From contig CBFGTS010000019.1 in NCBI GenBank assembly GCA_965652295.1, forward strand, positions 1 through 64,000: DNA of 64,000 bases, read 5' to 3'. The stretch comes from an uncultured Haloferula sp. Lineage in GTDB: Bacteria > Verrucomicrobiota > Verrucomicrobiia > Verrucomicrobiales > Akkermansiaceae. The position numbers and the translations under genes are program-made. The notes beneath the pieces are model-generated. The model was not told the DNA's origin. It ran no database searches and saw only the letters and a list, made by a program, of their open reading frames with translations. Of the stretch, positions 1,669-7,004 are shown one piece after another (position 1 is the stretch's first letter; every line of letters starts with the position of its first letter).

Positions 1669-2143
1669 AACCCCGGCAGCCCGTCACCTCTCCAACCCAC
1701 CTAAAATCCAAACCGCCTCCTTCCCCACCCACCGCGCGCCAGCGCCACTCCATCTCCATTCGCCCCGCCAGGACGGTATGAACCGGGCACATCGGTAGCA
1801 CCTTGGGCTGGGGGCATGCTCTGGAAAAACCGTGTTACCGGTGGGGTTTGGCCAGGCTCGGATTGAAATCCTTCGCCAAAGCGGCGTAGTCTGGAGGCCG
1901 GGAATTCGGAGAAGCGGTTCGAGGGTGGGGCTGCGGAGGTCGGGCGAGAGAGCTCGCGGTGTCGACGGGTAAACGCATTGTCAGCCCGGGCCTCCGCGGT
2001 CGCGCCGCCGGAAGAGATCGAAGGAGTTCATCGGTCGTGGTCCACGGGGGCGTCCGACACCTGGTCGTTTGACAAGCCTCCGACAGCGTCGAAGCTCCGC
2101 CTGAGAAACGCCATCCGGTGAGAATGGCGGGTTTCCTCCCTTG

Positions 2144-2476
2144 ATGAGACGCTCCGAAAATCCGACGCCCGTTCCGGCCGTGATCCCCTGGGTCATCGCC
2201 CTGATGGTTTGCGTCGGGTGGTCGGCGTGGGCTCAGGCGCGGGGCACGGTCGATGCCGGGACCCGGCCGGAATGCGGGCTTTCCCAAAATGTGGACGATG
2301 GCGGGGTGCAGGGAAGCCTGCCGGCGCGGCCTCTGCCGATGCGCGATGTTCCGATGACGGGGTTCTCCCGGGTAGCGATCCCTGAAGTTCGGCTCGGGAT
2401 GGAAGTGCGGTCGGAAATGCCGCCCTTCCATCTGCGGCCGAAGAGCCTGAGGAGCCGGGCCCCGCCACGCGGTTGA
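2144..2476 (+). CDS. Putative translation-arrest leader peptide (signal peptide + C-terminal RAPP), 110 aa, upstream of secA paralogue
   Basis: MRR n-region, hydrophobic AVIPWVIALMVCVGWSA, AWA/AQA cleavage-like site; ends ...KSLRSRAPPRG* with RAPP codons at 2456-2467; co-oriented with secA. Confidence 0.65.
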   Translation: MRRSENPTPVPAVIPWVIALMVCVGWSAWAQARGTVDAGTRPECGLSQNVDDGGVQGSLPARPLPMRDVPMTGFSRVAIPEVRLGMEVRSEMPPFHLRPKSLRSRAPPRG

Positions 2477-2677
2477 AATGGAGAACGCCGGCGCTTTGAC
2501 AGCCGGTCCGGCCGCTTTGCGGTCCATGTCATCCCACCCCATGACCTCCGGGCACCCGGGGTCTTTCCCGTTTCCCTGTCCGCTCCGTCTTCGGACGCCG
2601 GGCCCCTTTTCCATTCACACCATTCCTATCATGATTCTTCTGAATTCCGTCCCGAAACCTTCAGCCCCCACCCGGCC

Positions 2678-5224
2678 ATGATCGCCCGTTTTTTCCCTGC
2701 CTTCGTTGGAAAAAACGAGCGTGAGCTGGCGCGGATCCGCCCGCTGGTTTCACGCATCAACCGCCTCGAGGAAACCCTGCACAGCGAGCCGGACGAGGCT
2801 CTTCGCCGTCGTGTGGACGAGTGGCGCGGCCAGCTCGGCGGATGGGAGGCCGACGATGAATCTGCCGCCGTCGCCCGCGCCCGCTACCTCGAGAAAATCC
2901 TGCCAGAGGCATTCGCGGTGGTGAAAAACGCGGCCCGCAGGATGAGCGGACGCGAGGTCGAGGTGTGCGGACAGAACATGCTCTGGAACATGGTGCATTT
3001 CGACGTCCAGCTCGTCGGCGGCATTGCGATCCACCGCGGTCTGATCGCGGAAATGCAAACCGGAGAAGGCAAGACGCTGGTCGCCACGCTGCCCGTCTTC
3101 CTCAACGCGCTGACCGGCCTCGGCGTCCACGTGGTGACGGTGAACGACTACCTGGCACGCCGCGACTCGGAATGGATGGGTGAGCTTTTCCGTTTTCTCG
3201 GTCTGACCGTGGGCTGCCTGCAGAACGACCAGGATCCGGAAGTACGGCGTGAGCAGTACCAGTGCGACATCACCTACGGCACGAACTCGGAATTCGGCTT
3301 CGATTACCTGCGCGACAACGGCATCGCCCATACCGCGGCCGAGCAGGTACAGCGCGGCCACTACTTCGCGATCATCGACGAGGTGGACTCGATCCTGATC
3401 GACGAGGCCCGCACGCCGCTGATCATCACGGTCCCCGGAAACGACGCGGCCGGTCCTTTCGTGCGGAACAAGCCCGCCGTCGCCCGCCTGGTCCGCAAGC
3501 AGACGGACCTCTGCAACGGCTTCGCCAGCGAGGCCAAACGACTCATCGGAGCCGGCGATATGGCCGCGGCGGGGGTCGAGCTGCTGAAATTGAAGCTCGG
3601 CCAGCCTCGGCACCGCCAGTTCCTGCGATTGATGGAGCAGCCCGAGCTGCGGCGGTTGGTGGACAAGACCGAACTCGCTTTCCATCGCGGCCGCTCCGGA
3701 CGGACCCTCGTCCAACTCAAGGAGGAGTTGTACTTCTCCATCATCGAGAAGGACCGCGATGCCGCTCTCTCCGAAAAGGGGCGGTGTTTCCTCTCACCCG
3801 ACGATCCGGACGCCTTCACCGTGCCCGAGCTGGAACCGGATGCAACCGAGGTCGAGCGAATGAACTTCGGCGCACGGGCCGGAGAGATCCATGCGATCTC
3901 GCAGTTGTTGAAGGCCTATTGTCTGCACGAGCGCGACGTCCATTACGTCGTCCGCGGAGGCAAAGTGACGATCATCGACGAGAGCACCGGCCGGGAAATG
4001 CCGGGCCGGCGGTGGTCGGACGGCCTGCACCAGGCGGTTGAGGCGAAGGAAGGCGTGAAGATCGAAAGCGAGAACCGCACCTGCGCGACGATCACCATCC
4101 AGAACTACTTCCGGCTCTACGATAAACTGGCAGGCATGACCGGCACGGCGGAGACCGAGTCGGCGGAATTTCACGACATCTACCGGCTCGACGTGCTGCC
4201 GGTCCCGACTCACCGGCCGAACATCCGGATCGACGGAAACGACTGCCTTTTCCGAACGCGGGCGGAGAAGTTCCAGGCAGCGGTGGAGAAAATCCGGAGA
4301 GTTCATGGAACCGGCCAGCCGGTGCTGGTCGGCACCGCCTCGGTCGAGTCATCCGAAACGCTATCGCGCCTGCTGAAGCGGGCGAAGATCCCGCACACGG
4401 TGCTCAATGCGAAGAATCACGAGCAGGAGGCGGCGATTGTGACGAGAGCCGGAGAGAAGGGGGCGGTTACCGTTTCCACCAACATGGCCGGCCGCGGCAC
4501 GGACATCAAACTGGGTGAAGGCGTGGCCGAACTCGGAGGGCTTTTCGTGATCGGGACCGAGCGTCACACCTCACGACGGGTGGACCGCCAGCTCCGTGGC
4601 CGGTGCTCCCGCCAGGGCGACCCGGGGTGTGCGCAGTTCTTCCTTTCGCTGGAGGACGACTTGATGCGCCACCACGCCGCGCCGAACCGGATGGCGGCGA
4701 TGATCGAGGAGTTCGCGGCCCGATCGCGAACGCTGACCGGCGGATCGTTGGGAAAACTCATCGAGGAAGCGCAGCAGCGCGTCGAACAGCACGGCTACAA
4801 GATCCGCAAGCAGGTGCTGGATTTCGACGACGTGATGAACCTCCAGCGGAGCATCGTTTACGGCTATCGAAACGAGGTGCTGCATGCGACGGACATGCGC
4901 GAGGTGGTGCGGGAAATCCTGGCCGTGGATGAAGTACGGCGAACAGCGTACGAAGAGCGCGTCGCCGCGTTGCCGGCGGAAATGCTGGCAGCGATCGAAC
5001 GGGCGGCGGTGCTCCAGGCGATCGACTGGCACTGGCAGAACCACCTCGATGACATGGAGGATCTTCGCGAGGGCGTTTACTTGCGCTCGCAAGGCCAGAA
5101 GGACCCGCTGGTGGAGTATAAGAACGAAGGCTACACGCTGTTTTCCGGATTGATGGAGGCAATCCGGGAGACGTCCGCCCGGAACCTCGAACGGGTGGCG
5201 GGACGAGTGCGGGGGGTGGTTTGA
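2678..5224 (+). CDS. secA: Preprotein translocase ATPase SecA, probably a second, shortened paralogue (848 aa)
   Basis: EMQTGEGKT, VTVNDYLARRD, IDEVDSILIDEARTPLII, GMTGTA, TNMAGRGTDIKL, QLRGRCSRQGDPG, QKDPLVEYK motifs; no C-terminal CxC...CC/H zinc motif. Confidence 0.95.
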   Translation: MIARFFPAFVGKNERELARIRPLVSRINRLEETLHSEPDEALRRRVDEWRGQLGGWEADDESAAVARARYLEKILPEAFAVVKNAARRMSGREVEVCGQNMLWNMVHFDVQLVGGIAIHRGLIAEMQTGEGKTLVATLPVFLNALTGLGVHVVTVNDYLARRDSEWMGELFRFLGLTVGCLQNDQDPEVRREQYQCDITYGTNSEFGFDYLRDNGIAHTAAEQVQRGHYFAIIDEVDSILIDEARTPLIITVPGNDAAGPFVRNKPAVARLVRKQTDLCNGFASEAKRLIGAGDMAAAGVELLKLKLGQPRHRQFLRLMEQPELRRLVDKTELAFHRGRSGRTLVQLKEELYFSIIEKDRDAALSEKGRCFLSPDDPDAFTVPELEPDATEVERMNFGARAGEIHAISQLLKAYCLHERDVHYVVRGGKVTIIDESTGREMPGRRWSDGLHQAVEAKEGVKIESENRTCATITIQNYFRLYDKLAGMTGTAETESAEFHDIYRLDVLPVPTHRPNIRIDGNDCLFRTRAEKFQAAVEKIRRVHGTGQPVLVGTASVESSETLSRLLKRAKIPHTVLNAKNHEQEAAIVTRAGEKGAVTVSTNMAGRGTDIKLGEGVAELGGLFVIGTERHTSRRVDRQLRGRCSRQGDPGCAQFFLSLEDDLMRHHAAPNRMAAMIEEFAARSRTLTGGSLGKLIEEAQQRVEQHGYKIRKQVLDFDDVMNLQRSIVYGYRNEVLHATDMREVVREILAVDEVRRTAYEERVAALPAEMLAAIERAAVLQAIDWHWQNHLDDMEDLREGVYLRSQGQKDPLVEYKNEGYTLFSGLMEAIRETSARNLERVAGRVRGVV

Positions 5225-5256: not shown

Positions 5257-6333
5257 TCATGGCTGCGGGGCGATGGCGGGCCAGCCGTCGTCCCAGAAGA
5301 TCTCGCGGATGCGGAGCTTGGCCTTGCCCGCGTCCTTGAGGTCGTAGGCGTGGAAGACGAGGTAGTCCTGGCCTTCGAAGGTATAGGCTGCGGGGTGCCC
5401 GGTGGCCGCCCAGTCCTCGCCATCGCCGGCAGAGACGAGGGTGCCGCCGCCGCGGACCATGCGCTTGCCTTCCTTGTCGAGGTAAGGCCCGCGGATGTCC
5501 TTCGCGCGACCGACGACGACCTTGTAGGTGCTGTTGACTCCCTGGCAGCAGCGGTCCCAGGAAGCGAAGAGATAATACAGGCCGTCCTTCCTGAAGATGA
5601 AAGGTGCCTCGATCGAGCCGCTCTTCATGGCCTTGTTGCGGGCGAGTTGCTCCGGGGTGTAGAGCGCGTCGTAGTCGAGTTCCGGGTTGGCGGAATCGCC
5701 CGCATCGCGCTCGTCCACGGCGAAGTCGCGCTGGCGCGAAGCGATGGTGTGCCATTCCGCCCCCGGTCCGGTGACAATACCGAGGAGGTCGGGCTGCATT
5801 TTCACTAGCTTCAGGCCGGTCCAGAACGATCCGAAGCTCATCCAGGGCGTGCCGTTTTCATCGAAGGCGAGGTTGGGATCGATCGCGTTCCAGAGGTCGC
5901 GGCCGGGCACCGACTGGACGACGATGCCGTGGTCCTTCCATCCGAAATCAGGGCTTTTGGGATCGAGCGTGACATTGGTGGCCACGGCGATGGCCGAAGT
6001 ATTCCGGCCGAAAGCGGAGACGGAGTAGTAGAGGTAGAAAGTGCCGTCGTGTTCGTGGATATCGGGAGCCCAGATGTTGCCATCGAAGCCCGGCGCGATG
6101 CCCTTCACCCAAGCCGGGGTTTCGGCGAAAACAGGTTTCTCCTCCTGCCACGAGTGGAGGTCGGTCGAGGATTTCACCCGGATGCCGGGTCCGGTGTAGA
6201 ACAGGTAATAGGTATCGCCCTCCTTCGCGATGACCGGATCGTGCGCCTCCACGGACCGATCCTGGGCGGTTGAGACGAGAGGGGTGAAAACAAGCAGGGA
6301 GGTGAGGAGTGCCAGTGGGTTTCGGGTTTTCAT
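5257..6333 (-). CDS. Secreted GH43 endo-1,5-alpha-L-arabinanase-like enzyme
   Basis: Signal peptide MKTRNPLALL; AHDP, WAPD, NAIDP, SFGSFW, IEAP, CC, GHP motifs. Confidence 0.88.
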   Translation of the reverse strand: MKTRNPLALLTSLLVFTPLVSTAQDRSVEAHDPVIAKEGDTYYLFYTGPGIRVKSSTDLHSWQEEKPVFAETPAWVKGIAPGFDGNIWAPDIHEHDGTFYLYYSVSAFGRNTSAIAVATNVTLDPKSPDFGWKDHGIVVQSVPGRDLWNAIDPNLAFDENGTPWMSFGSFWTGLKLVKMQPDLLGIVTGPGAEWHTIASRQRDFAVDERDAGDSANPELDYDALYTPEQLARNKAMKSGSIEAPFIFRKDGLYYLFASWDRCCQGVNSTYKVVVGRAKDIRGPYLDKEGKRMVRGGGTLVSAGDGEDWAATGHPAAYTFEGQDYLVFHAYDLKDAGKAKLRIREIFWDDGWPAIAPQP

Positions 6334-6392: not shown

Positions 6393-6770
6393 CTACGTCT
6401 GCTTTCGATAGGGCACGACGACATCCTGCAACATTCCGAAATGCTTCGCATTCAGAGTGACGAGAGCGAGATGGTGTTGGGAGGCCGTGGCGGCGATCAT
6501 GCAATCCGCCAATCCGCAACCCATCAAAGTTCGGTAGTCGCGGCGAAACAGCCCAGCCACTTCGGCGATTTCCTCCGTCAGCGGAAGCACGGTGAGAGCG
6601 GAAAGGGTGGTGGTCAGTTTGGTTCTCTCCTGGCTTTCCCTCACTCCTTGGTAGAGTTCGGCAACGGTGACCGACGAGATATGGAGATGGTCGAGGTTTT
6701 GCTCCAGGAATTCAATCGCTTCGGCCCGTCCGCGGAGGAAATCGATCAAGACATCGGTATCGACGAGCAT
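6393..6770 (-). CDS. vapC: PIN-domain toxin (VapC family)
   Basis: LVDTDVLID, SSVTVAEL, LADCMIAATA, LVTLNAKHF PIN motifs. Confidence 0.9.
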   Translation of the reverse strand: MLVDTDVLIDFLRGRAEAIEFLEQNLDHLHISSVTVAELYQGVRESQERTKLTTTLSALTVLPLTEEIAEVAGLFRRDYRTLMGCGLADCMIAATASQHHLALVTLNAKHFGMLQDVVVPYRKQT

Positions 6771-6773
6771 GGC

Positions 6774-7004
6774 TTAAAAGCGGTCGAACTCTGCGCGGAT
6801 TTCCCGGAGGTCAAGATCCTCTCGATCGCTCCAGATACCGCATGCGGCGCGAAACCGGCCGAGCCGGTCCTGGGGACCCAAGCGTTGGAGATACTGGTCG
6901 ATCGCTTCCCGGATGACCTCGCTCTGCTTGCGTCCGGTGGTTCTCGCGACCCTCGCCACGCCTTGGACTTCGGCAGGGGTAAGGTAGATTTGCGTCCGGT
7001 TCAT
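6774..7004 (-). CDS. vapB: Ribbon-helix-helix (CopG-like) antitoxin
   Basis: RTQIYL beta strand, SEVIREAIDQYL helix, GIWSDRED tail; immediately upstream of the PIN toxin. Confidence 0.85.
   Translation of the reverse strand: MNRTQIYLTPAEVQGVARVARTTGRKQSEVIREAIDQYLQRLGPQDRLGRFRAACGIWSDREDLDLREIRAEFDRF

Follow-up and report, generated by a model that had tools for sequence, protein, structure and literature searches.

The DNA analysed here, a stretch of 64,000 nucleotides (nt) from an uncultured Haloferula species (contig CBFGTS010000019.1 of assembly GCA_965652295.1; hereafter the window), carries a small open reading frame (ORF) that ends shortly after the sequence Arg-Ala-Pro-Pro (RAPP) and lies upstream of a second copy of secA (hereafter secA2). 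We find that this upstream ORF (uORF), or leader, belongs to a family located directly 5' of a secA paralogue, and it is very likely that the leader acts as an arrest peptide. Its role is probably that of an export monitor for the spare SecA. The class of regulator is known, and one family member has already been published as an orphan (PMC10987492). What is new is that the leader represents a family rather than an orphan, that its partner is a duplicated SecA, often without the C-terminal tail (and, for the window copy, also without most of the wing domain), and that a leader of nearly fixed length is followed by a 146–348 nt spacer devoid of a Shine-Dalgarno (SD) sequence. The features of the window locus are as follows.

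2068..2096 (+): predicted sigma-70-type promoter, TTTGACA-N16-GAAGCT, recognised by conservation among relatives
2144..2476 (+): uORF of 110 amino acids (aa), candidate RAPP arrest peptide of the uA_RQH type
2180..2239 (+): hydrophobic N-terminal helix (aa 13–32) in which I-P-W is conserved, predicted to be a signal peptide or signal anchor (from hydropathy, AlphaFold and conservation)
2432..2461 (+): segment of 30 nt that precedes the predicted P-site codon; it is rich in G across the family and, among local segments, pairs best with the C/U-rich start region of secA2
2456..2467 (+): R105-A106-P107-P108, predicted stall site, with P107 in the P site (2462–2464) and P108 in the A site (2465–2467)
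2477..2677 (+): intergenic leader of 201 nt without an SD sequence, whose 5' part tends to fold and whose 3' part is C/U-rich and G-poor
2678..5224 (+): second secA, 848 aa

The coordinates given in an initial annotation of this DNA, which placed R105-A-P-P108 two codons before the stop of a 110-aa ORF situated 201 nt upstream of secA, were confirmed. RAPP is followed by Arg-Gly and the stop codon, and the ATG of secA2 begins at position 2678 on the same strand, 201 nt 3' of the leader. The proposed Sec-type signal holds insofar as there is a hydrophobic stretch at about aa 13–26 (Kyte-Doolittle 13-residue mean of 2.53 for aa 13–25; median of 2.65 for this segment across the family), and AlphaFold, using an alignment of 81 sequences, predicts a single helix at aa 13–32 (pTM 0.23) with the remainder unstructured; the helix is a predicted signal peptide or anchor. 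A folded secreted domain was considered and discarded on the same AlphaFold result, as was a lipoprotein signal, given that lipobox-like sequences occur in only 11 of the 48 leaders. In contrast, the low-complexity linker described in the initial annotation did not hold up, since its entropy (3.82 bits) is close to the median for SecA windows (3.92 bits), and this linker is better called variable. Searches of the leader against Pfam and NCBIfam returned zero matches.

Chance does not account for the leader and its RAPP placement. In the window genome (G000; 4.37 Mb, 98% complete), RAPP occurs within the last 12 residues of 40 among 46,814 stop-to-stop segments of at least 50 aa. A scan of ORFs of 60–260 aa with a hydrophobic N terminus yielded one case ending in RAPP and none in RGPP (controls: AAPP 6, AGPP 3), so that the window leader is the sole such ORF with a C-terminal RAPP or RGPP in the genome.

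Conservation upstream of secA paralogues, which the initial annotation had named as the way to check its proposal, is extensive. The first 21 leader loci (window included) were located by synteny, without a motif profile: among 61 genomes searched for SecA, 20 of the 34 relatives from the same genus had the paralogue, and in all of these, as in the window, a leader of 110–114 aa ends in R-x-P-P (20 RAPP, one REPP). Mean pairwise identity among these 21 leaders is 33%, with M1, W16, R105, P107 and P108 invariant. The invariant R, P and P are each encoded by 3–5 synonymous codons, those for Arg105 (CGG, CGC, CGT, AGG and AGA) being drawn from both the CGN and AGR boxes. Moreover, dN/dS is 0.19–0.79 for all 26 leader pairs (of 210) that exceed 50% identity. 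Across 81 leader sequences, I14, P15 and W16 are conserved at 90% or more, and no conserved Cys or His, and no conserved CXXC, is present in the aligned leaders.

A profile search of the bacterial family that includes Haloferula gave matches in 50 of 401 genomes. Twenty-nine of the matches fall outside the genus, and 27 of these lie directly before the paralogue; of the other two, L099 lies elsewhere and L100 (genome G403) is a false match that was excluded before counting. The result is a set of 48 loci in six genera, with L099 and a further homologue, L146, tallied apart, so that 48 of 50 homologous loci precede secA. Leaders at the 48 loci are 110–117 aa long, end in R-x-P-P plus 2–8 residues and lie 146–348 nt before secA; R, P and P are present in 48/48 and A in 46/48, with one REPP and one RSPP. 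The helix and the stall site are 75–81 residues apart, and the W-to-R distance is 88–93 aa (exactly 90 in 27 of 44 leaders). The profile found nothing in a phylum sample outside the family (0/277 genomes), and a larger profile found only L146 in an order sample outside the family (1/215). All 41 homologues from a protein database, a profile-selected set, end in RAPP. Two of them are named from Haloferula, including the species Haloferula chungangensis, which makes the family experimentally accessible.

The association is with the spare gene. No comparable leader ORF was found before housekeeping secA at 25 loci (10, two of them with short flanks, plus 15), whereas a leader is present in 45 of the 53 genomes in which two strong secA matches were obtained. 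The remaining eight comprise G338 (a member of the paralogue clade without a leader), five genomes of a genus designated g3 with an independent copy and two with two housekeeping-like copies; single-copy genomes were only partly classified, and leaderless paralogues may therefore be undercounted.

As the initial annotation supposed in speaking of a back-up SecA, the gene behind the leader is the genome's second secA. A separate housekeeping-type secA (C2:139846-142767), encoding a SecA of 1056 aa with the usual zinc-finger tail, is 55% identical to the window copy, which is therefore a paralogue. The window SecA retains Walker A (126–133), DEVD (234–237), motif VI, PPXD and the scaffold, but three parts are missing: a 58-aa N-terminal insert of the lineage, a piece of about 54 aa from the helical wing domain (with its junction at 748/749) and the zinc-finger tail at the C terminus. 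Residues 407–832 align to residues 303–725 of 4UAQ in one stretch across the wing. An assembly artefact behind the two deletions was rejected because contigs of independent runs (X4 and X3) bridge both junctions, and both deletions are also present at locus L002. Walker A and DE-D are found in 48/48 paralogues and motif VI in 47, the exception being a copy truncated where its contig ends, and the C-x-C-G-S-G zinc finger is retained in 11/48.

In a FastTree phylogeny from which the truncated SecA of L032 was omitted, the leader-bearing SecAs form a single clade (support 1.0; 47 full-length copies plus the leaderless L110), nested within the family's housekeeping copies. The window SecA scores below the cut-offs of all SecA2 family models (score/cut-off in bits: TIGR03714 634/930, TIGR04221 557/725, TIGR04397 749/1085, NF012136 584/1100) and above general secA cut-offs. 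It resembles the M. tuberculosis SecA2 of the 'SecA2-only' type in its short wing and missing C-terminal tail (PMC7503281), in the presence of one SecY and in the one-stretch alignment to 4UAQ noted above, but it is not an orthologue of that protein, as it falls below the SecA2 cut-offs and arose inside its own family's secA tree. We infer that the trimming is convergent. SecA2/SecY2 systems have a second secY, whereas G000 has only one.

The leader fits a class of regulators that has been described recently. Fujiwara et al. (2024; PMC10987492) define the RQH family of uORF arrest peptides, and all RQH candidates assayed there stalled B. subtilis ribosomes in vitro. Four rows in that study are from Verrucomicrobiae, three from Opitutales (uA_RQH_Opitutales) and one from Haloferula. 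The latter, uA_RQH_Verrucomicrobiales (supplementary file 9, row 875; Haloferula sp002304315; orphan TRUE), has a signal at 1–25 and RAPP at 106. Judged by eye, it matches the leader family in being a 114-aa ORF with an I-P-W hydrophobic segment and Q-G-R-A-P-P plus five residues, and the secA downstream encodes an N terminus that is paralogue-like rather than housekeeping-like. By these sequence features, uA_RQH_Verrucomicrobiales and the window leader are members of the same family. It is published as a single orphan, in contrast to the 48 loci in six genera reported here, and the sections of PMC10987492 covered neither name it among the assayed peptides nor mention a duplicated-secA link, promoter or spacer for it. 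A one-row orphan thus becomes a 48-locus family with natural weak-motif variants. Literature searches, which covered few subscription papers, listed no work on the size of the leader family or its tie to a second secA.

The window leader has the characteristics by which RQH peptides are recognised: a small same-strand uORF without a known function upstream of secA, an N-terminal secretion signal or transmembrane segment (hydropathy 2.53, helix 13–32), a RAPP-like C-terminal motif conserved in homologues (46 RAPP, one REPP, one RSPP) and more than 30 aa between signal and motif (75–81 aa). The 48 loci also exceed the two members in one order beyond which PMC10987492 recognises a group. The uA_RQH groups, eight of them upstream of secA, share the signal or transmembrane segment, the spacer of more than 30 aa and the C-terminal RAPP-like motif, and some of their rows precede genes annotated SecA2. 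The likeness of the uA_RQH_Opitutales rows (RAPS in the two with a visible motif column) to the leader family is confined to the motif, as judged by eye.

Other arrest peptides share parts of this arrangement. ApdA, ApdP and ApcA (Sakiyama 2021; Morici 2024) have the RAPP core, with Pro in the P and A sites, and lie before secondary paralogues, but these are secDF2 or yidC2 in Actinobacteria and Alphaproteobacteria rather than secA, and the residues upstream of the motif differ. MifM, VemP, ApcA, ApdA and ApdP are all placed before secondary paralogues (PMC7897499), and the chemistry of RAPP stalling has been described (PMC10951233). In ApdP, arrest is partly preserved when Ser or Glu replaces the Ala (PMC12992588), and these are the substitutions found in the natural RSPP (L097:373-705(+)) and REPP (L003:4086-4415(-)) leaders. 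These two could be tuned-down versions or sequence errors.

Escherichia coli SecM likewise has a signal-bearing leader before secA, an R-A-x-P stall and feedback logic. However, its FxxxxWIxxxxGIRAGP pattern is absent from the leader family and no SecM family match was obtained (Pfam, NCBIfam). SecM also controls the sole, essential secA through a hairpin that hides the SD sequence, whereas here the gene is a spare copy with no SD sequence and a spacer of 146–348 nt. In this Gram-negative lineage, which has a single SecY, the SecA under the apparent control of the monitor is a spare and trimmed one, following the spare-copy logic known for yidC2 and secDF2.

The promoter emerged only by comparison of relatives, since a stock consensus scan of the locus missed it and found no plus-strand terminator. 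TTTGACA-N16-GAnnnT is present 50–91 nt 5' of the leader ATG at 21/21 same-genus loci, and TTGACA-N16-nAnnnT at 40/48 leader loci. In G000, 16 is the commonest spacer between TTGACA and nAnnnT (26 sites versus 6–14 for other spacers), and this arrangement is likely the housekeeping promoter form. Genes surrounding the locus vary (25 clusters in 30 upstream flanks and 39 in 45 downstream flanks), so that the conserved unit consists of the promoter, the uORF and secA2. No SD sequence was found at the starts of secA2 (0/48) or of housekeeping secA (0/20), and by a crude estimate SD motifs are not enriched in G000 (12.0% at first-ATG starts versus 13.7% at internal ATGs). Initiation in this genome is likely SD-independent. 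The secA2 starts are C/U-rich, as is the region before housekeeping secA, with the G-poor stretch extending further before secA2.

These findings lead us to propose the following mechanism. One promoter, whose motif is conserved, would drive both the leader and secA2, and the codon-level selection noted above suggests that the leader is translated. By analogy with ApdA, ApdP and the RQH peptides, the ribosome would stall with Pro107 in the P site. The stall might then be relieved when the Sec machinery exerts a pulling force on the hydrophobic helix at the N terminus; the 75–81 residues between helix and stall are well above the 30 needed. If export lags, the stall would persist and the second SecA would be switched on. 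For the switch itself, the stalled ribosome and a ribosome queued behind it may cover the G-rich stretch before RAPP and thereby free the C/U-rich, SD-less secA2 start. Finally, SecA2 would work with the only SecY present, serving either as a back-up motor or as a specialised one. The coupling to secA2 is the weakest step, and the locus poses the question of how a stalled ribosome could control a gene that starts 200 nt further on and has no SD sequence to be unmasked.

A number of observations weigh against the leader being an export monitor of this kind, beginning with the fact that both stalling and export sensing are inferred. The n-region is often not basic (net charge of zero or below in 23/48 loci), none of the 26 pairs used for dN/dS includes the window ORF (its nearest relative is 49% identical), and the nearly fixed leader spacing differs from the wide variation among published Sec monitors. 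Moreover, L110 (G338:C8) has a secA of the paralogue clade with no uORF; an ORF resembling the C terminus of a Y-family DNA polymerase (by eye) stops 171 nt upstream of it. L099:367-723 (G276:C5), a weak homologue (E 1e-4) that ends in GRAPP plus five residues, is followed after about 240 nt by uspA-like and mrpA genes in a genome that shows a single secA, and it is possible that the leader was re-used there for an ion antiporter operon. L146:1501-1845 (G051:C20) is a clear homologue (E 6e-17) from another family, with no recognisable secA in the 390 nt up to the contig end.

RNA folding, assessed at equilibrium only, adds to these objections. A single ribosome footprint (-13 to +17) changes the cost of opening the secA2 start by a mean of 0.15 kcal/mol, with an effect above 1 kcal/mol at 9/48 loci and one in the wrong direction at 13/48, and it does no better than a control footprint. 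Unmasking of the start by one stalled ribosome in the manner of SecM was therefore rejected. The secretion-monitoring proposal of the initial annotation stands as to a RAPP leader before secA; SD unmasking as in SecM is not directly transferable, because no locus (0/48) has an SD sequence and a single footprint does not open the start region. The 30 nt before the P site do pair with the secA2 start more stably (-15.6 kcal/mol) than 14 other windows (-8.2 to -12.7 kcal/mol), but cognate pairs of these segments bind no better than non-cognate ones. A queue-like cover (-60 to +17) lowers the opening cost by a mean of 1.7 kcal/mol, versus 0.47 for mid-ORF positions (p 0.016, the related loci not being independent), but this effect is indistinguishable from that of shuffled heads (0.94, p 0.11) and non-cognate heads (1.17, p 0.42), and covering has no effect at the window's own locus (8.8 versus 9.2 kcal/mol).

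Several candidate RNA structures were also discarded. No covariation was observed between the pre-RAPP segment and the secA2 start region. A long helix in a consensus of seven sequences has coding sequence on both sides and only one pair with two-sided change, and a consensus of four sequences including the window gave no stable fold (-1.94 kcal/mol). Sites resembling intrinsic terminators occur in 24/48 spacers versus 17–23 in five shuffles, which is at chance level and therefore provides no intrinsic-terminator signal. The first 90 nt 3' of the leader stop do fold somewhat better than shuffled sequences (mean z of -1.36 versus -0.25 mid-ORF).

The same sensor might operate another switch, with the stall controlling Rho-dependent termination in the long leader. 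As an account of the whole system we consider this possible, though improbable; it is compatible with every step up to release of the stall and competes only with refolding of the RNA beneath queued ribosomes, which as the switching step we prefer by a slight degree to Rho-dependent attenuation. A precedent is CruR of Bordetella (DUF2946; PMC9426467), which also pairs a RAPP uORF with a long intergenic region and a switch other than SD masking, but which senses copper through CXXC and precedes a gene for a TonB-dependent transporter, whereas the window leader has neither a conserved CXXC nor a Pfam match. The SD-less spacer of 146–348 nt, the negative single-footprint result and two rho-like genes in G000 (C10:120345-121574 and C11:128630-129727; 497 and 417 bits, below the TIGR00767 cut-off of 509) agree with such a switch, as does an excess of C over G across the last 90 nt of the spacer (38–47 of 48 loci per 30-nt window), with a G-poor stretch longer than that before housekeeping secA. 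However, the C>G bubble of CruR begins inside the uORF, whereas in the leader family G predominates over C in the 30 nt preceding the P site (C-G of -0.137) and the 30 nt that follow it are neutral. Because the C>G stretch sits at the far end of the spacer, a stalled ribosome would not cover the C-rich part, and C/U-rich starts precede housekeeping secA too.

It is less probable that the arrest peptide senses a different input, such as insertion into the membrane (SRP/YidC), the energised state of the membrane or a binding partner of the I-P-W helix. The narrow spacer length recalls MifM, sequence is conserved within the hydrophobic segment next to a non-basic n-region, and the L099 homologue precedes a uspA-like/mrpA antiporter operon, but 48 of 50 homologous loci precede secA, a conserved Cys or His that might bind a ligand is lacking, SignalP 6 calls a signal peptide in the published homologue (PMC10987492), and the 75–81 residue spacing is near that of a short SecM (71) and above that of MifM (54). 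We regard it as quite unlikely that a mainly constitutive stall keeps the mRNA tethered to the translocon, with SecA2 synthesised beside SecYEG and regulation only secondary. Tethering of this kind is a role proposed for SecM. The folding tests revealed no clear RNA switch, and SecA2 is without the tail said to contact the ribosome in other SecAs (PMC7503281), both of which would suit tethering, but it leaves unexplained why only the spare copy has a leader (0/25 housekeeping loci), and the tested relatives regulate expression. It is very improbable that RAPP is incidental and that the ORF is either a spurious frame or the gene of some ordinary small protein, secreted or in the membrane. Although the motif alone is often insufficient to stall and a frame on the opposite strand is open across the leader, 46/48 leaders retain RAPP across synonymous changes, against an identity of about 25% in their middle part, the motif always lies 2–8 codons from the stop, no fold is predicted, and RAPP is underrepresented in the proteomes of Verrucomicrobiota (mean bias of 0.15; PMC12992588).

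A separate case was observed in genus g3, whose second secA arose by an independent duplication (tree support 1.0). A different leader lies 130–150 nt upstream of it in four of five genomes (L113:3382-3936(-), L111:3394-3900(-), L116:529-990(+) and L112:567-1001(+)), and the fifth clade member, L039, shows none. Three of these leaders are complete, with 145–185 aa and a hydrophobic N terminus, and the fourth extends past the end of its contig. Their non-RAPP tail, (I/L)(I/L)(P/S)Y(D/E/H)x(L/V)(R/H)P(H/R/C)-stop, is a candidate new arrest motif and, with four sequences, a lead only. A profile of this leader matched 4/154 genomes, three near-identical proteins are in the database, and the leader is missing from the Verrucomicrobiae rows seen in supplementary file 9 of PMC10987492. 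Tentatively, secA might have been duplicated twice within one family, each spare copy acquiring its own export-sensing leader: a RAPP leader acting by a non-SecM route (queue or Rho) over a 150–350 nt spacer on an SD-less, progressively trimmed SecA, and a g3 leader with a new arrest motif. Two other g3 genomes (G361 and G393; L123-L126) each hold two housekeeping-like secA copies with no leader seen, from recent duplication or mixed bins.

No conserved substrate gene or secY2 adjoins secA2 among the flanks examined. In the window, a gene for an MgtC/DUF4010 membrane protein (325–1593, +) and one for an endo-1,5-alpha-L-arabinanase-like GH43 protein (5257–6333, -) flank the locus, and both are absent from the flanks of relatives that were examined. 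Beyond them lie two consecutive ORFs (6393–7004, -), the first of 76 aa and the second, of 125 aa, resembling by eye a PIN-domain protein; they likely form a VapBC-type toxin-antitoxin pair.

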